Positions 1,737 through 64,000 of a stretch of 64,000 bases of DNA are shown piece after piece. The position numbers and the translations under genes were made by a program. The stretch is from Vulcanimicrobiaceae bacterium (GTDB lineage Bacteria; Vulcanimicrobiota; Vulcanimicrobiia; Vulcanimicrobiales; Vulcanimicrobiaceae), in the NCBI GenBank assembly GCA_035938175.1, contig DASZHD010000046.1, positions 9,294-73,293 of the forward strand, written 5' to 3'. A model generated the notes under the pieces. It was not told the origin of the DNA. It ran no database searches and worked only from the letters and a program-made list of their open reading frames with translations. The stretch's first letter is position 1. The number at the start of each line of letters is the position of its first letter.

Positions 1737-1846
1737 GCCCCTTCGATTCCTCCGGTGGTTCGATGCGCGAGCACGACGAGTTATGCCCTTCGATTCCTCA
1801 GGGTGCTTCGATACCTCAGCATGACAGGCGATTCCTCACCATGACA
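1737..1846 (-). repeat. 49-nt repeat family, 2-3 degenerate units in reverse orientation
   Basis: cccttcgattcctcagggtgcttcgatacctcagcatgac is the reverse complement of the unit seen at 13784, 20021 and 63595. The flanking copies are degenerate. Confidence 0.8.
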
Positions 1847-6215: not shown

Positions 6216-6722
6216 TTAAGCGAAAGCCGGCGGAGGCCGGGAGAAGAGCCGAAGTGTGTGCGCGGTGGAACGCGAGGGCGCACACGTGTATGGAGCGCGA
6301 GAAGCCTGCCGTGGCGCAGGCGAAAAGACGCCTGTCAGAACTGCGACGATCGCGGCAAACGTTTGCGCGAATGCGAGCAACACGACGCGCACCAGCCAGG
6401 ACGCGAACGCGACCGCAACGGCCGCCGCTAAAAATGAAACGGCGTGAGACTGCTCGCACAGCTCGATGCCGGCAAACCATGCTGCCGCGCCGCCCGTCAT
6501 CGCGAGCAGATGGATCCGCGGCGATTTCCAGCGGCGAACCGCAGCAACGGCGGCCAAAAGCGTGGCGAAGAATGCGAACGACGTGCCGAGCGAGAGCGCG
6601 GCACCGTGCAAGGACCCGGCGAGCGTATGCTCGTTGCCGAACAACAGGACGTGCGCGAGCAGCGCTGCGGGCAATCCCAGCAACGCGGCGTAGCCGAACT
6701 TCCTGATGCTCGTCACTATCAC
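6216..6722 (-). CDS. polytopic membrane protein (hypothetical)
   Basis: 168-aa ORF with about 4 hydrophobic helices. Its start overlaps the stop of the upstream multicopper oxidase by 4 nt, which suggests an operon. Confidence 0.5.
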   Translation of the reverse strand: MIVTSIRKFGYAALLGLPAALLAHVLLFGNEHTLAGSLHGAALSLGTSFAFFATLLAAVAAVRRWKSPRIHLLAMTGGAAAWFAGIELCEQSHAVSFLAAAVAVAFASWLVRVVLLAFAQTFAAIVAVLTGVFSPAPRQASRAPYTCAPSRSTAHTLRLFSRPPPAFA

Positions 6723-8167
6723 GAGCGGTAAACGACCTCGGTTCGCATCCCGTCCATCATATGTATCTCGTTATGGCAATGCAACAGCCACCGTCCGGGC
6801 GGTGAATCCGCCGTAAAATGCCATGTTGCTGTCCCTCCATGCGCCCGCACCAGGGCCGTGTCCTTGGGGAGCGGCCTAAGCAGCGGTTTGCCGTCCACGC
6901 TCGTTAAACGAAAAACATGCCCGTGCAGATGCATCGGATGGTCCATATCCGTCGTGTTCTTGAAATGAATCGTCACGGCGTCGCCGCGTGTGACGAAAAT
7001 CTTCGGGGTGTGCGGATACGTTTTGCCGTTTATCGTCCACGCGTTGCTGCCGTAGGCGCCGCCCCCAAGTGTAAAGTTGTAGTCATGCTGAGGCGTCTTG
7101 TCATGCTGAGGCATCGAAGCACCCTGAGGCATCGAAGGGCCAACTCCCCCCGCCCCCTCGTACGTAAAGAACTCAACGCCTTCCAGGGTTTGCGGGCTCG
7201 CGGCGGGCGCCGCATTTTCGAAGCCCTCGGTATAAACGACGGCCGCCTGCTGATACGCGGTCGGTTCGCTGGAGAGACCTTGCAATAGCCAAGCACCGGG
7301 TTTTTGTACTTCGAACCACGCGTCGTACCGTTCGGCGACGCCTATACGCAACGCATCGACCGTCACGGGCGCTTCAAGACGGTTCCCGTCCGTGTGCGTT
7401 ACGGTCAGACGATGATCGGCCAGACGCACGTAACGCGTCTGCGTCGGGTTCGCATTGAGAACGCGCAAGCGCACGCGCTGTCCGACTTTCACGGGAAGTT
7501 TTTGCGTTGCCGGATACGACCGGCCGTTGATGCAATGCGCGACGTACGCAACTTCGTCGCCCATTTTATCGTTGGGCTCCATCTCGCGCATTTCCGGAGA
7601 ACCGATAGGATCCACCATCGGCGCGCCGCTTACGCCCATCATCGCCTGCTCGATCGTCGGCAAATTCGGCACGTCGTGAAAGACGAGCGCAAACTCCGCG
7701 TCGTAGTGCTCGTCGTTCGGATCTTCCACGACGATCAATCCGAAGAGCCCGCGCGGCAAGCCGCCGCCCACGTGATCGTGATACCAGCGCGTTCCGGCCG
7801 GCTGCGCGACGAAATCGTACAGAAACGAATCGCCGCTGGGCACCGGCGCCTGCGTAATATCTTCAACGCCGTCCATGCGGTTCGGAAGAATCATTCCGTG
7901 CCAGTGAACCGTAGCCGGTTTGCCGCTGGAGTTCACGAATTTCGCGCGCAACCGCTGCCCTTGCGCGACGCGAATGACCGGCCCCGGAATGCTGCCGTTG
8001 AACGCGAGGAGCGGATACTGCATGCCCGGCGCCGGCGAAAATGCAATCGGTGCTGCGGTTAGCGTGTAGTCCAGCGTGTCTTCGGCCAGCGCCCGCGCCG
8101 GCAGCCGCGGTACTGCGAGCGCGGCCATCACGCCCGCACTTCGCGCCAAGAAGACGCTGCGGCGCAT
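6719..8167 (-). CDS. Tat-exported multicopper oxidase
   Basis: All four copper-ligand motifs are present: HWHGM, WYHDHV, HPMHLHGH and HCHNEIHMMDGM. There is a twin-arginine leader (MRRSVFLARSAGVMAALAVP). I place the start at the internal ATG at 8167, where TAATG overlaps the upstream stop by 1 nt. Confidence 0.9.
   Translation of the reverse strand: MRRSVFLARSAGVMAALAVPRLPARALAEDTLDYTLTAAPIAFSPAPGMQYPLLAFNGSIPGPVIRVAQGQRLRAKFVNSSGKPATVHWHGMILPNRMDGVEDITQAPVPSGDSFLYDFVAQPAGTRWYHDHVGGGLPRGLFGLIVVEDPNDEHYDAEFALVFHDVPNLPTIEQAMMGVSGAPMVDPIGSPEMREMEPNDKMGDEVAYVAHCINGRSYPATQKLPVKVGQRVRLRVLNANPTQTRYVRLADHRLTVTHTDGNRLEAPVTVDALRIGVAERYDAWFEVQKPGAWLLQGLSSEPTAYQQAAVVYTEGFENAAPAASPQTLEGVEFFTYEGAGGVGPSMPQGASMPQHDKTPQHDYNFTLGGGAYGSNAWTINGKTYPHTPKIFVTRGDAVTIHFKNTTDMDHPMHLHGHVFRLTSVDGKPLLRPLPKDTALVRAHGGTATWHFTADSPPGRWLLHCHNEIHMMDGMRTEVVYRS
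7082..7142 (+). repeat. 49-nt repeat family copy inside the multicopper oxidase CDS
   Basis: gtcatgctgaggcgtcttgtcatgctgaggcatcgaagcaccctgaggcatcgaagggcc. It is read through in-frame on the minus strand as GPSMPQGASMPQHDKTPQHD. Confidence 0.8.
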
Positions 8168-9984
8168 TATTGCCCGACGTTCAGCGGCACAGTCATGGTT
8201 TGGCCGTCGTACTGAACGCGCACGGTCCACGGACCGCCCATCGAAAACACGACGCGTCCCGTGAACAGATGCGGATCGGAAGCGGATTGCGTGAGCGTCA
8301 CTTCGCGAGTCTGCATCGTGCTCGCACCCATTTGCATGATCGGAAGAACGCTGACGCTCTTCGGCGGAGTTCCTGGGAACCGGATCGATATCGTCGCCAT
8401 GTCGGTCGGCACGGCGGGATCGAACGTTACGACGGGCTTCGTGCCCGCCGAGCCGCCGTCCAAATTCGAGAGATACGTGACGATGCTCGAGACTTGATCG
8501 GTGGTGAAGCCGAAGTTCGGCATCGGCGGCTTAGGATTCACGATTGCATTTGCAATTTGCTCCGCGGTGAGCTTGTGCTCGATTCCGAAGAGCGCCGGAG
8601 CAACGCCGCCGCCGTGCAAACCCGCGCCGTGACAGCCTTCGCATCCGTTTGCCTGCACCAGCTTCGCACCCGCGTCAGCCGAAGCGGCGCCGGTTACGGC
8701 CTGCGGACTCGCCGACGGAACGGGCGCGGCACTTGGATCCGGGGGCGGTGCATTTGCTGCGAGCGTTTGGGCAGACGCCACGTGCAGGTTGGAAAGAAAG
8801 CGGCGGCCGTAGTCATACGGGCCGCCGTACGCCATTTGAAACGCGATCTGCGGACGCTGTCCCGGATATGTTGCCAGTTCGCCGATCAGCGCCAGGTTCG
8901 GTAAGACGTTATGCGCGACGTCCGCGACGACTTGCCGCGTCAGTGTGTCGCTCGAGGCAACGTCGTAGCGGAGTAACAGGTGGTTGCGCCATCCCAAATC
9001 GCGTTCCGCCTCGAAAAAGAATCCGTTCAACGGCACGTCGTACGCGCCGATATCCGGATTCGCGTCTTGCCCGTGATAGTACATCGATTGATAGTGCCAT
9101 GCGTCGGTTTGGTAAGCGAAATAGACGCCTTCGCGCGTGAAGGGCTGGGTGCCCAAGAACGCGCCGCTTGCCGGGTCGTTCAGCGGCGACCATCCGCGCA
9201 TGCCCACGAGCCCGACGCTCCAAGGAATGGACATGCCCCCGTACGACACGTTGAGGTCGATCGCGCGCGGATTGTTGGCCTGGTTGTAATCCAGTGCGTC
9301 GCCCGTGGAGCCGCTGCCCGTTAACCACGACACATTGTACATGAACTCGTTGGACATGCCGTTGAAGGCCGCGCCCCACCGCGCGTCATTGGGATTGAAC
9401 TGATTCTGGCCCGTGGTCTGAGCCGCGAGCAAATACGGGCTAATCGTCCACGCGTGGGCCGGCATAAACGGAAACGGGGTGTGAAATTTGCCGACCTGGA
9501 TCGAATTCGTGCCGTGCAGCAGGCCGTTCCAGGATATCCAGACCTGTTCGGTCTGCCCGATGACGCCGGAATCGATGACGTGCTGTTCGGCGTACCACGT
9601 AAAGTTGCGTCCCAAGAATCCGCCGCCCAGAAGCGAGAGGTCGGAAACCATCGTGCTTCCCGGATGATCTTTGTTTGCGAGGATCGATTGAATGTACAAG
9701 CGCGCTGAAATCGGGAGCGCGCGATCTTGCAGATGCCGGTTCAGGATTTGAAAATTCGACATCATGACCATCATGCCGTAGCGCGTCATTCCCGGAAACG
9801 TCGTGTGACAGGTTTCGCACGAAATGCCTTGCCCGTTGGCAAACACCGGAATAGCATCGGCGCGCTGCGCTGGAATGAATGCGAGAAGTGCGGCGGCGCC
9901 GAGTGCGCGCAGAACCGCAGCGTACGATGGGTGCATGGAGTGCCTCCGCGAGAATTCAGGCGCGTTCGCGTCGTAGGTTTCCAT
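8167..9984 (-). CDS. multidomain c-type cytochrome: N-terminal heme site, beta-barrel-like region, class-I cytochrome c domain, YtkA/FixH-like domain
   Basis: 605 aa. Signal peptide (ALLAFIPAQRADA) with CETCH directly after it. A region of about 380 aa rich in alternating aromatic/Gly strands follows, then a Pro/Ala linker. A second heme site CEGCHG has a downstream PPMP Met ligand region. The C-terminal Ig-like domain has a Met-rich segment (LPIMQMGASTM...GGPWTVRVQYDG). Confidence 0.75.
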   Translation of the reverse strand: METYDANAPEFSRRHSMHPSYAAVLRALGAAALLAFIPAQRADAIPVFANGQGISCETCHTTFPGMTRYGMMVMMSNFQILNRHLQDRALPISARLYIQSILANKDHPGSTMVSDLSLLGGGFLGRNFTWYAEQHVIDSGVIGQTEQVWISWNGLLHGTNSIQVGKFHTPFPFMPAHAWTISPYLLAAQTTGQNQFNPNDARWGAAFNGMSNEFMYNVSWLTGSGSTGDALDYNQANNPRAIDLNVSYGGMSIPWSVGLVGMRGWSPLNDPASGAFLGTQPFTREGVYFAYQTDAWHYQSMYYHGQDANPDIGAYDVPLNGFFFEAERDLGWRNHLLLRYDVASSDTLTRQVVADVAHNVLPNLALIGELATYPGQRPQIAFQMAYGGPYDYGRRFLSNLHVASAQTLAANAPPPDPSAAPVPSASPQAVTGAASADAGAKLVQANGCEGCHGAGLHGGGVAPALFGIEHKLTAEQIANAIVNPKPPMPNFGFTTDQVSSIVTYLSNLDGGSAGTKPVVTFDPAVPTDMATISIRFPGTPPKSVSVLPIMQMGASTMQTREVTLTQSASDPHLFTGRVVFSMGGPWTVRVQYDGQTMTVPLNVGQ

Positions 9985-13765: not shown

Positions 13766-13768
13766 CTT

Positions 13769-13938
13769 GTCATGCTGCCGCGTGTCATGCTGAGGTATCG
13801 AAGCACTCTGAGGAATCGAAGGGCCCCGCATTGTCATGCTGAGGTATCGAAGCACCCTGAGGAATCGAAGGGCCCCGCATTGTCATGCTGAGGCATCGAA
13901 GCACCCTGAGGCAGCGAAGGGCCCCTCTCCCCTCGCAA
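13769..13938 (+). repeat. 49-nt repeat family, tandem array (one partial and three full units)
   Basis: Units start at 13769 (partial), 13784, 13833 and 13882, giving an exact 49-nt period. The consensus is gtcatgctgaggNatcgaagcaccctgaggaatcgaagggccccgcatt. Confidence 0.9.
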
Positions 13939-14087
13939 CCGCGCCCGACGTTTCGCATCCGTGCGAAACGCTGGCCTACTGAATTGAGCGCTTCACCCCA
14001 CATCCGTGTTTAGGCGCTCAATTCAGATGCTTGCGAGGGGAGAGGGGCCCTTCGCTGCCTCAGGGTGCTTCGATGCCTCAGCATGAC
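13882..14087. repeat. perfect 57-bp inverted repeat enclosing a 92-bp double-hairpin core (MITE-like or structured-RNA element)
   Basis: 13882..13938 is the exact reverse complement of 14031..14087. The core holds a 9-bp stem (13949-57 with 13962-70) and a 13-bp stem (13979-91 with 14014-26). Confidence 0.85.
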
Positions 14088-14155
14088 GAGCGATGCTGCA
14101 GCATGACAAGGGGCGGCGAGCCGAGAAGCAAGCGTCCCACAAGGAGACCCAAAGC

Positions 14156-20020: not shown

Positions 20021-20105
20021 GTCATCCCGAGGTATCAGCGTGTCATCCCGAGGTATCCGCTTGTCATCCTGAGGTATCGAAGGACCCTGAGGTATCGAAG
20101 GGACC
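20021..20105 (+). repeat. 49-nt repeat family, divergent copies
   Basis: gtcatcccgaggtatc is repeated three times and ends in ctgaggtatcgaaggaccctgaggtatcgaagggacc, directly after the metK stop. Confidence 0.8.
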
Positions 20106-20235
20106 AACCATCATAAGCAGGGGGCCCGGTGCAACGCATCGGACCCCCTTTTCGTTATCTACAGCAGCAGGCTCACAAACGTGGGTAACATGGGACCGAC
20201 TCCACGGTTCCGCAAAGAAAGATTAAGGAGAACGC

Positions 20236-49694: not shown

Positions 49695-49725
49695 AAGAGC
49701 GGCGATTGTGCGCCGCTCTTTTTTA
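49695..49725. terminator. bidirectional intrinsic terminator
   Basis: Perfect 10-bp stem (aagagcggcg at 49695-704 with cgccgctctt at 49711-720) and a 6-nt loop. There is a T-run on the plus strand and a T-rich tract on the minus strand. It sits between convergent stops at 49674 and 49739. Confidence 0.75.
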
Positions 49726-49738
49726 ACCGGTTACGGCT

Positions 49739-50137
49739 TTACGCCGCTTTCTTTTTGCGTCCGCCTTTTTTGCGGCCGCCCTTTTTGCGTCCGGCCTTCT
49801 TGCGTCCGCCTGCGGATGCTGCTGATTTCTTGCGTCCGCCCTTTTTGCGTCCGGCTTTCTTACGACCGCCCGCGGCTTTCTTGCGTCCGCCCTTCTTGCG
49901 TCCGCCCGTCGATTTCTTGCGTCCGCCTTTCTTGCGTCCGCCGGTCGATTTCTTACGTCCGCCTTTGCGTGCACCGGTCGATTTCTTGCGTCCGCCTTTG
50001 CGTGCGCCCGTCGATTTCTTGCGGCCGCCCGCGGCTTTACGGCCCGCGGATTTCTTACGGCCGCCTTTGCGGCGCCCGCCACGACGTCCCGATGATTCTT
50101 CCATCGTTCCGCCGTTTTGCATCATGTCGGAATCCAT
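49739..50137 (-). CDS. highly basic GGRKK-repeat protein (histone H1 / Hc1 / AlgP-like)
   Basis: 132 aa with a short acidic N-terminus (MDSDMMQNGGTMEESS) followed by about 20 repeats of GGRKK(S/A)(T/A)G. Lys+Arg exceed 40% of residues. The underlying DNA is tandemly repetitive. Confidence 0.7.
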   Translation of the reverse strand: MDSDMMQNGGTMEESSGRRGGRRKGGRKKSAGRKAAGGRKKSTGARKGGRKKSTGARKGGRKKSTGGRKKGGRKKSTGGRKKGGRKKAAGGRKKAGRKKGGRKKSAASAGGRKKAGRKKGGRKKGGRKKKAA

Positions 50138-50341
50138 TCTTCCTCCCTTCGTCCCCGGGGACGAACTCGAGATGGTGGACAGCGCAATTTAGCGCTTTGT
50201 GCGCATCATAAGTAATTTTCGCAAGAATTGCAAATCGAGGGTGTATTTGCTGTTGACGAAGACTTCACAAATGGTGTATCGCGCGCACGCGCGTTGTCCT
50301 CAATTTGCCCCCGGCTTGACCGCGGGGGTATACTAGGGCCC

Positions 50342-52502: not shown

Positions 52503-53936
52503 TTGTCAAAGCGTCTAACCGTTATCGGCGCGGGCCTTGCCGGAAGCGAGGCCGCTTGGCAAGCGGCGCTATGCGGCGTTGCCGTCGATCTCTACGAAAT
52601 GCGCCCGCAGAAAAGCGGTCCCGCCCATCACACGGGAAATTTTGCCGAGCTGGTCTGCAGTAATTCATTTCGCGGCGCCGCGCTCGAGAATGCCGTCGGT
52701 TTGTTGAAAGCGGAACTGGAACTTCTCGATTCGCTCGTGATGGCGTCGGCGCGCGATGCCGCGGTGCCGGCCGGCGGCGCCTTGGCGGTGGATCGCGACC
52801 GCTTTTCGCAAGCCGTACAAGCACGAATCGAATCGCAGCCGCTGATCGCGGTGCATCGCGAAGAAGTGCTGACGATTCCGCTCGACCGTCCCGCGATCGT
52901 TGCGTGCGGGCCGCTGCCGAGTACGGAGTTTTTGGGGGAGATTGATGGGGTGTTGGGGAGGGTGGACCCTTCGATGCCTCAGGGTGGTTCGATTCCTCAC
53001 CATGACAAATCGAGGCTGCACTACTACGATGCCGCCTCGCCGATCGTCGCCGCCGATTCGATCGACGAACGTCCCATGTATCGCAAATCGCGATACGAAA
53101 AAGGCGACGGCGACGACTACCTCAATATTCCCCTAACGAAAGAGCAGTATCTTCAACTGCTCGCGGATTTGCGCACGCTGCCGCGGCACGAAACCAAAGC
53201 GTTCGAAGATGCAAAATATTTTGAAGGCTGTCTTCCGATCGAAGAGATGGCCGATCGCGGCGACGACGTGCTGCGCTTCGGACCCATGAAGCCCGTCGGA
53301 CTGCGCGATCCGCGCACCGGAAAAACGCCGTACGCGGTCGTGCAGTTGCGCAAAGAAAACGTCGCGGGCACGGCGTTCAATTTGGTCGGTTTTCAAACTC
53401 GTCTCACCTGGCCGTCGCAAAAGGAAGCGTTCCAAAAACTTCCCGGGTTGGAACGCGCGGAATGGCTGCGCTTGGGCGTTATGCACCGCAACACGTTCAT
53501 CGACTCGCCGCACCTGTTGGGGCCGGACCTGCGTTTGCGCGGAACGCCGTCGCTGTATTTTGCCGGACAGATCACCGGAGCCGAAGGGTACGTCGAGGCC
53601 GCCGCTTGCGGCGCCATGACCGGCATCCACGCCGCGCGCCAAATCCTGGAACTGCCCGCGGTGGAGTTTCCGGATACGAGCGCGTTCGGCGCGATCGTCG
53701 CGCACCTGCAGAACACCCAGACGCCGGACTTTCAGCCCGCAAATGTCACATGGGCGCCGTTTCCGCCGCTTGATCCGCAGACCGTTGCGAGCCTCGGAAA
53801 GCGCCCAGACAAAAAGGTGCGGCGGCGGATGCTTGCGGAACGCTCGCTGGCCGCAATGAACTTATTTGCCCGCGCGTTGAGGAGACATGATGATCGCAAC
53901 CCCTCCCACCACCTACTCGCCGCCCCGGCTCGTTAG
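52503..53936 (+). CDS. trmFO: methylenetetrahydrofolate--tRNA-(uracil-5)-methyltransferase
   Basis: LTVIGAGLAGSEAAWQ (FAD site), ELVCSNSFR, MHRNTFI, YFAGQITGAEGYVE. It contains an in-frame repeat-derived insertion (see findings). Confidence 0.9.
   Translation: MSKRLTVIGAGLAGSEAAWQAALCGVAVDLYEMRPQKSGPAHHTGNFAELVCSNSFRGAALENAVGLLKAELELLDSLVMASARDAAVPAGGALAVDRDRFSQAVQARIESQPLIAVHREEVLTIPLDRPAIVACGPLPSTEFLGEIDGVLGRVDPSMPQGGSIPHHDKSRLHYYDAASPIVAADSIDERPMYRKSRYEKGDGDDYLNIPLTKEQYLQLLADLRTLPRHETKAFEDAKYFEGCLPIEEMADRGDDVLRFGPMKPVGLRDPRTGKTPYAVVQLRKENVAGTAFNLVGFQTRLTWPSQKEAFQKLPGLERAEWLRLGVMHRNTFIDSPHLLGPDLRLRGTPSLYFAGQITGAEGYVEAAACGAMTGIHAARQILELPAVEFPDTSAFGAIVAHLQNTQTPDFQPANVTWAPFPPLDPQTVASLGKRPDKKVRRRMLAERSLAAMNLFARALRRHDDRNPSHHLLAAPAR
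52967..53006 (-). repeat. 49-nt repeat family copy inside trmFO
   Basis: cccttcgatgcctcagggtggttcgattcctcaccatgac (reverse orientation), read through in-frame as PSMPQGGSIPHHD. Confidence 0.8.
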
Positions 53937-61624: not shown

Positions 61625-62152
61625 ATGAGAATTCGCTCAACCACGATTCTGGCGGTGCGCCGGGACGGAAAGCTCGCCGTAGCAGGCGACGGGCAAGTTA
61701 CCTTCGATAAAACGGTCATGAAGCACGGTGCGCGCAAAGTGCGGCGCATCGCGGGCGGTAAAGTCATTGCCGGCTTTGCGGGATCGGCAGCGGACGGCAT
61801 TACCTTGCTCGAAAAATTCGAAGGCAAATACAACGAGTACAAAGACATCATGCGCGCGTCGGTCGAGCTCGCGAAAGAGTGGCGTCAGGACCGCGCCCTG
61901 CGCCGTCTCGAGGCGCTGCTGATCGTCGGAAATGCGGATCATTTGCTGGTACTCAGCGGAAACGGCGACGTAATCGAACCGGACGAGGGCGTCGCTGCAA
62001 TCGGCAGCGGCGGACCGTACGCGCAGGCGGCAGCAGCCGCACTGGTTCGAAACACCGCCATGCCGGCCGAAGAGATAGCGCGCAAGGCGTTGGAGATCGC
62101 CTCGGAAATCTGCATTTACACGAACGACAGTATCATCGTGGAGAGCCTCTAG
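61625..62152 (+). CDS. hslV: ATP-dependent protease subunit HslV
   Basis: [22 protein letters not shown] (N-terminal Thr nucleophile after processing), [15 protein letters not shown]. Confidence 0.95.
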
Positions 62153-62169
62153 TGGCAGGCGGGAACGAC

Positions 62170-63591
62170 ATGATTCAGCTCACGCCGCGCGCCATCGTTG
62201 CCGAGCTCGATAAGTACATCGTCGGCCAGGCAAACGCAAAACGTGCCGTAGCCATCGCCATGCGCAACCGGTATCGCCGCGAAAATGTGCGCGAAGACTT
62301 GCGGGCCGAGATCATTCCGAAGAACATTTTGATGATCGGGCCTACCGGCGTTGGCAAAACCGAGATCGCGCGCCGCTTGGCCGCGCTCTCCGGCGCCCCG
62401 TTCGTGAAAGTCGAGGCTACGAAATATACCGAGGTCGGCTACGTTGGCCGCGACGTCGAGTCGATGGTTCGCGACTTGGTCGAACACGCGGTGCGCATGG
62501 TCACCGACGAACGCCGTGAAGAAGTGAAAGATCTCGCGGAGAAAATGGCAGTGGATCGTATCATCGATCTGCTTCATCCCGAGACGCGTCCGCCCGCGCC
62601 TCCGGGACAGCAGAATCCGTTTGCGGCGACGCTGGGATCGATCTTCGGCGGTCAATACGCGCAACAGCAACAGCAGCAGGCGCCGCCGCCACCGCCACAG
62701 AGTCCCGACACGGCTCGCGTGCGCGATCAAGCGCGGGCAGACGTCGAGCGCGGATTCTACGACGTGCGCCTGGTCGAAATCGAGACCGAAGAAGCGCCGA
62801 ACGTTCCGATCGGCGTTATCGGCGGCGGGTTCGATCAGGGCGGCGGCGTTGGAGACATCGGTGAAATGCTCGGCGGGATCTTGCCGAAGAAGCACATTAA
62901 AAAGCGGGTGACGGTGCAAGAAGCCCGCCGAATTTTCGCGCAGGAAGAAGCCAACAAACTGATCGACATGGATGCGGTCAAGCGCGAAGCGTTGCGGCGC
63001 GCGGGCGAAAACGGCATCATCTTCATCGACGAGATCGACAAAGTCGCGGGAAGAGAAGGCGGCCGCGGCCCCGACGTCTCGCGCGAAGGCGTGCAGCGCG
63101 ATATCCTGCCGATTGTCGAAGGCAGCACGGTCAACACCAAATACGGCACGATCAAAACCGATCATATCTTGTTCATCGCGGCCGGCGCATTTCACATCAG
63201 CAAACCGTCGGACCTGATTCCCGAACTGCAGGGCCGCTTCCCGATACGCGTGGAGCTCGATTCGCTGACGGCAGAAGACTTCAAAACGATTCTTACACAG
63301 CCGAAGAACGCGCTAACCGAGCAGTATAAAGCGCTGCTTGCCACCGAAAACGTGACGCTGGACTTTCAGCCGGACGGCATCGAGCAGCTCGCGCAATTCG
63401 CGATGCAAGTCAACGAGCAGAGCGAGAACATCGGCGCGCGACGGCTGCATACGGTGCTCGAGCGGCTTCTGGACGAGGTGAGCTTCGGAGCGCCCGAGCA
63501 AGGGGGAACTGTGGTCATCGACGCCGCGTACGTCAAGCAGAAGCTGCAAGACGTGGTCACGAACGCGGACTTGAGCAGTTACATTTTATAA
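62170..63591 (+). CDS. hslU: ATP-dependent protease ATPase subunit HslU
   Basis: [27 protein letters not shown], Walker [50 protein letters not shown] use the ATG at 62170; the ORF-track start lies inside hslV. Confidence 0.95.
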
Positions 63592-63594
63592 TCT

Positions 63595-63830
63595 TGTCAT
63601 GCTGAGGAATCGAAGCACCCTGAGGAATCGAAGGGCCACGCATTGTCATGCTGAGGAATCGAAGCACCCTGAGGAATCGAAGGGTAACGTATTGTCATGC
63701 TGAGGCATCGAAGCACCCTGAGGAATCGAAGAGTCACGCCGTTGTCATGCTGAGGCATCGAAGCACCCTGAGGAATCGAAGGGTCACGCGTCGTCATGGT
63801 GAGGTATCGAACCACGCCGAGGCATCGAGG
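63595..63830 (+). repeat. 49-nt repeat family, tandem array of five units
   Basis: Units start at 63595, 63644, 63693, 63744 and 63793 (period 49-51 nt). The last unit is degenerate. The array begins 4 nt after the hslU stop. Confidence 0.9.
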
Positions 63831-63838
63831 CGATTTGG

Positions 63839-64000
63839 CTACCCCGCCTGCGCAGCAGTCATCTTCCGCCGCTTGCGGTCGTACATACGCTCGTCCGCCG
63901 TGCGAATGAGCCCAGGCAAATCGGCGGCATCTCCGGGGAACACGCTCGTGCCGACCGTTGCGCCGACATCCGGTAATCCATCCGCATCGCTAAACGGCGC
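63839..64000 (-). CDS. C-terminal end of a GGDEF-domain protein (partial, runs off the window)
   Basis: Minus-strand translation gives ...DVGATVGTSVFPGDAADLPGLIRTADERMYDRKRRKMTAAQAG-stop. The RTADERMYDRKR tail is typical of diguanylate cyclase domains (ADeAMY.AK). Confidence 0.6.
   Translation of the reverse strand, partial: APFSDADGLPDVGATVGTSVFPGDAADLPGLIRTADERMYDRKRRKMTAAQAG

Follow-up and report, generated by a model that had tools for sequence, protein, structure and literature searches.

A hairpin-forming, REP-like interspersed repeat in a Baltobacteraceae genome that probably spreads as selfish DNA

Introduction

Why is the gap behind hslU filled, from one stop codon almost to the next, by five head-to-tail copies of the same 49-nt sequence, and what kind of element would produce such an array? 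The array lies in a 64-kb window (C46:9294-73293), by which we mean the whole stretch of DNA analyzed here, taken from a MAG of the Eremiobacterota (a soil phylum that has been little studied), family Baltobacteraceae, with an assembly of 3.73 Mb in 62 contigs and 61% G+C. The initial annotation of this window described a genome-specific repeat family forming tandem intergenic arrays at gene 3′ ends, with units that were not hairpins, had no spacers and belonged neither to REP/BIME-like palindromes nor to CRISPR. We followed the repeat through the window, the genome and the related genomes. We conclude, with a probability of roughly 0.7, that it is a REP-like, hairpin-forming, non-coding interspersed element that spreads as selfish DNA.

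Results

The repeat in the window and across the genome

TRF reports a 49-nt period with 4.8 copies at 63594-63828 (90% matches) and 2.9 copies at 13783-13925. This agrees with the fivefold array first described at 63595-63830 and with the 3.5-fold array described at 13769..13938, the latter resolving into a partial head followed by three full units (Table 1). The internal half-repeat of the unit is also real: the 14-nt half-unit CTGAGGNATCGAAG matches the window 28 times against 1.4 expected, a count reached by 0 of 100 shuffles, and its matches recover all seven of the loci described earlier, among them the copies previously placed at 1737..1846 and 20021..20105. Inverted copies had been noted at 14031..14105; within them, 14031-14087 is a perfect inverted copy of 13882-13938 (57/57), and the whole composite at 13766-14117 consists of 3.5 units, a long structured core and 1.5 inverted units.

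Table 1. Features of the repeat family in the 64-kb window, in window positions
Feature	Position	Strand	Evidence or remark
Half-unit CTGAGGNATCGAAG matches	1741-1819, 14050-14081, 52969-53000	-	
Half-unit CTGAGGNATCGAAG matches	7106-7137, 13790-13919, 20069-20100, 63602-63830	+	
Degenerate unit 1737-1780, full unit 1786-1825 and partial head 1828-1846	1737..1846	-	
Partial head and full unit in multicopper oxidase gene 6719-8230(-)	7084..7139	+	In frame, antisense
Partial head 13768-13776 and three full units (heads 13784, 13833, 13882)	13766..13921	+	Left arm of composite
Long structured core of composite	13922..14047		RNA fold, nhmmer, covariation
Inverted unit 14048-14087 and inverted partial head 14091-14117	14048..14117	-	Right arm of composite
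Two partial heads (21-nt period) and full unit 20063-20102	20021..20102	+	TRF, half-unit matches
One full unit in trmFO (52503-53936, +)	52967..53006	-	In frame, antisense; encodes DPSMPQGGSIPHHD
Direct head-to-tail array, 5 units	63594..63832	+	TRF, half-unit matches
GTCAT heads of the hslU-downstream array	63596, 63645, 63694, 63744, 63793		Last unit degenerate

As first reported, the arrays start within a few nucleotides of stop codons. The hslU array begins 4 nt past the TAA of hslU (63589-63591) and fills all the space up to a convergent ORF on the minus strand, finishing 6 nt short of the stop codon of that ORF (63839-63841); no terminator-like site or intrinsic terminator was found around it in 63300-64000. 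The left arm of the composite begins 2 nt past the stop of the PHP-domain gene, and the copies at 1737..1846 lie in sense orientation 8 nt 3′ of the stop of the minus-strand ORF 1855-2634. The copies behind metK begin 6 nt past its stop and are followed by a terminator hairpin with a U-tract at ~20119-20157. The metK unit thus lies between stop and terminator hairpin, and is therefore transcribed, inside the metK 3′ UTR.

Two further features of the window were recorded. The longest hslU ORF, 61879-63591 (570 aa), overlaps an hslV-sized ORF at 61625-62152 and has AAA-domain matches only from about residue 105; hslU itself probably starts near 62150. Dense tandem repeats of 15, 21, 36 and 102 nt (TTCTTGCGTCCGCC...) were found by TRF at 49751-50071, within overlapping ORFs that span 49708-50211; the gene concerned codes for a low-complexity repeat protein and has no relation to the 49-nt repeat family.

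Across the genome we counted 461 half-units with at most one mismatch; full 40-nt units number 287 and are spread over 145 loci. The family is accordingly dispersed, not confined to the window, and present in the hundreds of copies that had been predicted, at gene 3′ ends. The 145 loci comprise 60 singles, 32 direct arrays, 44 head-out doublets and 9 complex loci, with no pure tail-out doublet among them. Such a dispersed distribution, together with a semi-conserved inter-unit segment, is not that of a CRISPR, as had already been noted. That same 9-nt segment is a spacer between the tandem units, which had been described as lacking one.

Each unit is a pair of covarying stem-loops

Each 40-nt unit consists of two adjacent small stem-loops, in which 4-bp stems surround a conserved GA-G...C-GA core. 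The consensus is (T)(T/C)GTCAT-SS-TGAGGNATCGAA-SS-AC-C-C-Y-GAGGNATCGA-R-GGG, where the positions S, Y and R are variable and change in complementary pairs. The first stem occurs as TGCT/AGCA (82), TCCT/AGGA (89), TGGT/ACCA (82) and TCGT/ACGA (10), each of the four S-S variants being seen with its exact complement (4/4), and the second as CCCT/AGGG (~213), CCCC/GGGG (~50) and CGCC/GGCG (~17); only about a dozen mismatched stem combinations exist. When the two-hairpin model is applied to 150 distinct units, 98.1% of cells are paired, as compared with 85.9% in shuffles, and 172 double-sided stem changes are seen where 62 are expected, values reached by none of 500 shuffles. Six of the eight outer-stem pairs covary, and pairing drops to 35-69% in slid controls, in which the partners are shifted by 1-3 columns. 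Compensatory change has thus maintained the stems; subfamily structure could inflate the covariation in part. The statement that the units are not hairpins therefore fails for the half-unit, which is a stem-loop with compensatory variation, and also in view of the 44 inverted doublets.

Each stem encloses an invariant GA...GA, a single G-C pair and a GNAT loop whose N was in no case a G; this loop has 4 nt here and 5 nt in relatives. The stem count rises to seven “pairs” if the sheared G.A pairs are included. Ahead of the invariant GTC, 47% of the 287 units have a T and 33% a C, and this base lies outside the covarying stem; the tag is followed by AT, and the covarying Watson-Crick pairs are made by the T and the next three positions only. 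There is no free CCA tail, as no more than a C separates stem 1 from the second stem (ACC-CT...). The half-unit cores of 10-12 nt are invariant and regularly spaced. Near-pairs are equally often G-T and A-C (10 and 10), and an RNA-type wobble bias is thus not seen on either strand. Tandem sheared G.A pairs can be formed by the GTCAT strand only. Two resemblances of the loops were considered and not retained: CsrA-type GGA loops, because the base that varies in the loop can be A, T or C, so that GGA is not conserved, and a tRNA T-loop (GGTTCGATTCC), which is true of one stem variant only.

The minimum-free-energy RNA fold of the GTCAT strand is exactly the structure supported by covariation. 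The energy of the isolated unit is unremarkable, both as RNA (-9.8 kcal/mol, z = +0.4) and as DNA (-3.3, z = +0.8), and the tandem array folds worse than its shuffles (z = +2.5), on which ground we rejected a long-hairpin model for the tandem arrays. For these, then, the earlier denial of hairpins holds, in that there is no long-range fold. Given the unremarkable unit energy and the poor fold of the array, the hairpin model rests on the covariation. A short head-out doublet, folded as DNA, reaches -36.8 kcal/mol (z = -8.6).

Doublets, arrays and a 126-nt core

The commonest compound form is the head-out inverted doublet, in which two different arm types surround a conserved centre. The gaps between the arms are bimodal, at 17-20 nt or 126-128 nt. 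Of 37 short doublets, 21 have the canonical asymmetric form [CC/T arm]-GCCGATCGCAAACG-[C/GG arm] (p = 3e-6), in which the two stems of arm 1 are CC-type (first) and T-type (second) and arm 2 is C-type/GG-type. Because the arms are heterotypic, the 100-nt palindrome stays imperfect. Such a frequency would fit a doublet that replicates as one unit; 60 singles and 32 arrays exist beside it.

Direct arrays contain 2-5 units head to tail with a modal period of 49, lengths that may be mis-assembled in a 62-contig MAG in which many contigs end in the repeat. Adjacent tandem units are identical in 16 of 65 cases (3.6% expected for random pairs) and have a common stem variant in 48 of 65 (30% expected). 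Partial heads recur at 21 nt, and at one orthologous intragenic site this genome has three extra heads where a related MAG has zero. From the likeness of neighboring units and the variable number of extra heads, we conclude that arrays grow by local duplication. The repeat also breaks the assembly, as 19 loci lie at contig ends.

The longer of the two gaps holds a structured core. In the window this core (13922-14047) is closed by a 17-bp stem (13922-13938 / 14031-14047), within which two hairpins lie (13939-14030), and its RNA fold has an energy of -59.4 kcal/mol (z = -9.1). It is a separate family, with 31 copies in the genome by nhmmer (for example C46:2693-2813) in both orientations, of which 30 lie between head-out units, with 1-4 units per side and often unequal numbers. 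When armless copies from a congener are included, 16 of 42 pairs covary. The congener copies (L030, L031; G202:C224) differ in their closing stems, lack units and show compensatory changes in each of the two hairpins. Conserved unpaired stretches are AACCGCGCCCGAC, GCTGGCCTAC and CACATCC.TGT.TAGG. The core matches no Rfam family; it may represent an RNA not yet described, or else a MITE-like element.

Position relative to genes and copies within genes

With gene calls from our own rough codon-usage ORF scorer (2952 genes), the loci in spacers comprise 57 unidirectional, 44 convergent and 14 divergent cases; in the background, these three classes make up 63%, 18% and 19% of all spacers. Convergent spacers are therefore two-fold enriched and divergent ones depleted. 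Among singles and arrays in unidirectional spacers, 23 are sense and 6 antisense to the upstream gene (p = 0.002). The head of the unit lies 0-40 nt past the stop codon, at a median of ~18 nt, and in convergent spacers the head side is the side closer to a gene.

In one closed relative (G036, 2.65 Mb; samples L035-L054), unit orientation tracks the replichores (p = 0.02): with the origin at 0.95 Mb by dnaA and GC skew, which switches near 0.95 and ~2.3 Mb, 26 loci are plus and 5 minus in the left replichore, as against 2 plus and 4 minus in the right, so that the GTCAT strand tends toward the lagging-strand side. The gene-strand bias there is weak and the loci are strongly clumped, with ~20 in 2.40-2.65 Mb. 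No replication-strand bias was found in the present genome by local GC skew (p = 0.69); as the observation in G036 is only suggestive, we do not use it as evidence.

About 20 genes carry in-frame copies, in both orientations, among them trmFO, valS and the multicopper oxidase gene. Both intragenic copies of the window reported earlier are thereby included: that of trmFO lies inside the GIDA domain, and that of the multicopper oxidase between the Cu-oxidase and Cu-oxidase_2 domains. TrmFO and ValRS (contig C18) contain the identical peptide PSMPQGGSIPHHD, an insertion of ~12 aa when they are compared with the Thermus structures 3g5q and 1gax. Only two frames are used, both open and hydrophilic, giving SHPEVSKDPEESKG in sense and PSIPQGASIPQHD in antisense orientation. 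Coding arrays have periods of 27 or 21 nt, sub-repeats that keep the reading frame. As with RPE-like coding insertions, these are in-frame insertions inside otherwise conserved proteins. Two genes, at C37:24830-26104 and C30:189169-190878, have long in-frame arrays, one with seven half-units giving (GASIPQHDK)n and the other with a stretch of ~59 aa; the repeat is thus able to build sizeable low-complexity protein segments.

Distribution, empty sites and the absence of a Y1 transposase

Searching public genomes for exact-pattern matches returned nearly exclusively MAGs labeled [quoted passage not shown] The exact double-loop pattern is almost restricted to this lineage: against 258 matches in this genome, one further sampled genome gave 17 and the remaining 199 gave 0. 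A relaxed scaffold, GTCAT-SS-TGAG-N3-7-GAA-SS-AC with covarying SS, is present in 59 of 121 and in ~91 of 124 sampled Baltobacteraceae genomes, for which reversed-pattern controls gave ~0. Its copy number within the family ranges from 0 to 300, and a third of the family is without any copy. No match occurred in 19 genomes of sister families in the class, and a single match in 57 genomes of the rest of the phylum. The loops of the scaffold are lineage-specific (GGNATC, GCYYGTC or GCGNAGTC); every lineage variant retains the GA...GA, and it is the inner loop that differs. The repeat is consequently genome-specific, as first proposed, in its loop sequence only; its scaffold is family-wide.

Two congeners, one of them closed, have no copy at all (gene identity ~77%), and the sites downstream of the PHP-domain gene and of hslU are empty in them. 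Empty orthologous sites were found in G202 and G201; in G202 the complex at 13766-14117 is missing from the orthologous site, where the intergenic gap is ~45 nt. Comparison with MAGs that are 80-86% identical revealed orthologous copies that were shared, gained or lost, and stem-switched. No transposition event and no mobilising enzyme was found, and we deduce mobility from presence and absence between genomes that are ~77-86% identical. No target-site duplication was visible when filled and empty sites were compared, their flanks having diverged. The transposase domain PF01797 (Y1_Tnp/RAYT) is found neither in this genome nor in any of 18 repeat-rich relatives, some of which are closed. Control genomes do match; the sole match falls in a repeat-free genome. 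Neither an IS-like parent with unit ends nor a flanked candidate gene was found in the genome, and the genes between inverted loci (RbfA-like, DHH phosphoesterase-like, EamA-like transporter and aldo-keto-reductase-like) resemble housekeeping genes, as judged from their sequences alone.

Rfam returned nothing at gathering score. Among matches by E-value, we rejected a weak one to Acido-1, as well as one to the plant family MIR537 (64 bits against a cut-off of 100), which is an artefact of the long hairpin. The plasmid collection contained no match to the repeat, and a literature search by sequence string returned primer coincidences only. Similar GTCATCCTGAGCGAAGCGAAGGA-type repeats may also occur in other soil phyla; in the Eremiobacterota, the scaffold is limited to a single family.

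Comparing orthologous regions also yielded two observations beside the repeat itself. Upstream of dnaK, the unit at C57:42160-42191 is orthologous to L008:4200-4240 in a MAG ~85% identical, with its first stem switched from CC/G(A) to GG/CC, either by conversion from another copy or by independent re-insertion at the site; a conserved hairpin (CCTTGTAGCC.AGTAAGCGGCAAGG) lies just upstream of this unit. A conserved intergenic stretch, GCCGAAGTAGGG...GGGTCCTCACCGGATGCCT.CGGGCGATCCGGTCTTC..., is shared by C60 ~6900-7100 (rc) and L009:225-330 with ~85-90% identity between the two species and diverging flanks; a repeat unit adjoins it in the relative and not in this genome. This stretch may be a structured RNA or leader.

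Discussion

How the repeat may spread

The repeat has a REP/BIME-like organisation, its arrays have been amplified locally in tandem, its sites are polymorphic for presence and absence, and its copies are filtered toward 3′ UTRs and tolerant protein loops. We take these observations to reflect an element that would spread at the DNA level in the form of a folded single strand and be mobilised in trans, through an activity other than a RAYT/Y1 transposase, with the canonical doublet likely copied as one unit. Tandem arrays such as 63594-63832 would grow afterwards by local duplication of the unit and its 9-nt spacer, through slippage or unequal exchange. Copies would survive mainly where harm is small: in sense 3′ UTRs, in convergent spacers and in tolerant protein loops that use the two open, hydrophilic reading frames. 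Roles as mRNA 3′ stabilisers, protein-binding sites or recombination hot spots, all raised in the initial annotation, are the classical proposals for REPs. E. coli REPs affect mRNA 3′-end stability or translation termination. By analogy, because copies are co-transcribed with the upstream gene, this repeat may have a secondary effect on mRNA 3′ ends or on termination-proximal translation.

Some of our observations would fit a role in RNA as well as selfish spread, namely the sense bias and the strand-specific G.A motif. Under such an explanation the units would primarily be 3′-UTR modules, selected for protein binding or for blocking 3′-5′ exonucleases, which stabilise or tune the upstream mRNA and were recruited by selection instead of by selfish transposition. 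The 23:6 excess of sense copies with heads 0-40 nt past stops, the transcribed metK unit between stop and terminator, the agreement of the RNA fold with the covariation fold on the one strand able to form sheared G.A pairs and the retention of GA...GA while the inner loop changes would all be expected of it. We nevertheless consider it rather unlikely, because G-U near-pairs are not in excess over A-C, half of the doublet arms are necessarily antisense, 14 loci lie in divergent spacers, ~20 genes are hit in both orientations, and two congeners and a third of the family live without any copy.

It is unlikely that the half-units are instead duplex DNA sites, 18 and 31 nt apart, for a nucleoid-associated protein, gyrase or a similar factor, with arrays that serve chromosome organisation or supercoiling control as has been proposed for E. 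coli BIMEs. Duplex sites would account for the invariant, regularly spaced 10-12-nt cores, for the BIME-like mosaic with its conserved inter-arm motifs and for arrays between convergent genes, where positive supercoils accumulate. They leave unexplained why the stems vary freely yet in complementary fashion, why in-frame copies are tolerated and why close relatives have a copy number of 0.

Less probable again is that the composites are classical MITEs, that is, deletion derivatives of an IS whose DDE transposase recognises the 40-nt units as terminal inverted repeats. A core flanked by head-out inverted arms and a patchy copy number among genomes recall such elements, but the genome has no longer element with these ends, the intervening genes look like housekeeping genes from their sequences, target-site duplications are not visible, and most loci are singles and head-to-tail arrays. 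The arms, moreover, comprise 1 to 4 units, unequal between sides, and a congener has the core without arms. Finally, an assembly artefact from collapsed or chimeric reads, which the 19 loci at contig ends of a short-read-type MAG might suggest, is extremely improbable, since orthologous sites in independent assemblies and in closed relatives carry the family and the in-frame copies keep long ORFs open.

Selfish spread remains our preferred reading. A more specific and more tentative idea is that this is a RAYT-independent replicator, a REPIN/BIME-like hairpin element that might have persisted and diversified across one family without an HUH/Y1 transposase. Its scaffold would be the invariant GTCAT..TGAG..TCGAA..AC with lineage-specific loops and 0-300 copies. 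It could be moved by an unrecognised enzyme, or by a replication-coupled template switch that reads the G.A-stabilised mini-hairpin. If so, the family offers a contrast between 0 and hundreds of copies, in some cases in closed genomes, with which to find the responsible activity, and the answer would bear on the spread of “orphan” CGTC-type REPs in Neisseria, Rickettsia and alpha-proteobacteria.

In bacteria, small hairpin repeats shape the ends of operons, interrupt assemblies and give rise to spurious or altered proteins. To these the present family adds a new phylum and a structure supported by covariation, composed of a 4-bp stem, tandem G.A, a G-C pair and a variable loop. The ~120 related genomes, with zero to ~300 copies, are a comparative panel in which a mobilising gene may be traced by phyletic profile. 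For the annotation of Eremiobacterota MAGs, contig breaks are to be expected at these elements, and peptides of the SHPEVSKDPEESKG or PSIPQGASIPQHD type inside real proteins.

Comparison with known repeat systems

The initial annotation had set the repeat apart from REPs and BIMEs. The pairs of covarying stem-loops, the TGTC/CGTC head tag and the head-out heterotypic doublets contradict this, as together they make up a REP/REPIN/BIME architecture. What is new is a family of the REP/BIME kind, nearest to CGTC-type REPs, in a new phylum and with no known mobiliser.

The closest known kind is that of the CGTC-tagged REPs, which include Neisseria dRS3 and Rickettsia RPE-4 and RPE-6 (Di Nocera, De Gregorio & Rocco 2013, PMC3733652); we liken the two by their traits, and the supplements of that study contain no strings matching the unit. 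Those REPs have at one end an unpaired terminal tetranucleotide CGTC (or TGTC/CCTC) followed by AT, form a stem of 8-9 bp that opens with complementary A-T residues and has a loop of 4-5 nt and end in a short unpaired tail with the consensus CCA (PMC3733652). They lie downstream of ORFs, often less than 20 bp from the 3′ end, in unidirectional and convergent spacers, mostly as HH dimers, with TT dimers rare and HT dimers negligible; they also have intragenic in-frame copies, tRNA synthetase genes among the targets, and are explicitly without an associated tyrosine transposase (PMC3733652). The present repeat shares the TGTC/CGTC head tag followed by AT and placed outside the covarying stem, the position downstream of ORFs in convergent and unidirectional spacers (median ~18 nt), the 44 head-out dimers with no pure tail-out dimer, the intragenic in-frame copies and the lack of a tyrosine transposase. 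It differs in that its unit is a fused pair of stem-loops, each with 4 Watson-Crick pairs, tandem G.A and one G-C instead of an 8-9 bp stem, in its 32 loci with head-to-tail arrays, a form negligible in CGTC-tagged REPs (PMC3733652), in its composites with a 126-nt structured core and in its phylum, which is new for this kind of element.

GTAG REPs and REPINs are mobilised by RAYTs (Bertels & Rainey 2011, PMC3116915; PMC3337134). The repeat resembles REPINs in its hundreds of copies, its extragenic location and its short-spacer inverted doublet, which is seemingly replicated as a unit (21/37 canonical), whereas its tag is (T/C)GTC, not GTAG, and RAYT is absent from the genome and the 18 relatives. 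Rickettsia palindromic elements (RPE-1 and others) insert in frame in essential genes as short hydrophilic loops (cited in PMC3733652). The in-frame copies adding short hydrophilic loops are alike, and the differences are that the repeat is mostly extragenic here and that its coding copies use 27/21-nt sub-repeats.

The compound loci are also comparable to the BIMEs of E. coli. As in these, two inverted arm types (CC/T and GG/C) alternate around an GCCGATCGCAAACG centre or a 126-nt core, conserved non-palindromic motifs separate them, and the clusters vary in composition; the sequences are unrelated, however, and one of the two centers here is itself a repeated, structured 126-nt element. The E. 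coli BIMEs are mosaics in which conserved motifs link REPs of the Y and Z types, and are bound by IHF, gyrase or Pol I. A more distant likeness is to the BOX elements of Streptococcus pneumoniae and the foldback elements of Drosophila, which are modular, with variable tandem subunits within or forming inverted arms. The modular build is alike, and with unrelated organisms and sequences the comparison is an analogy only.
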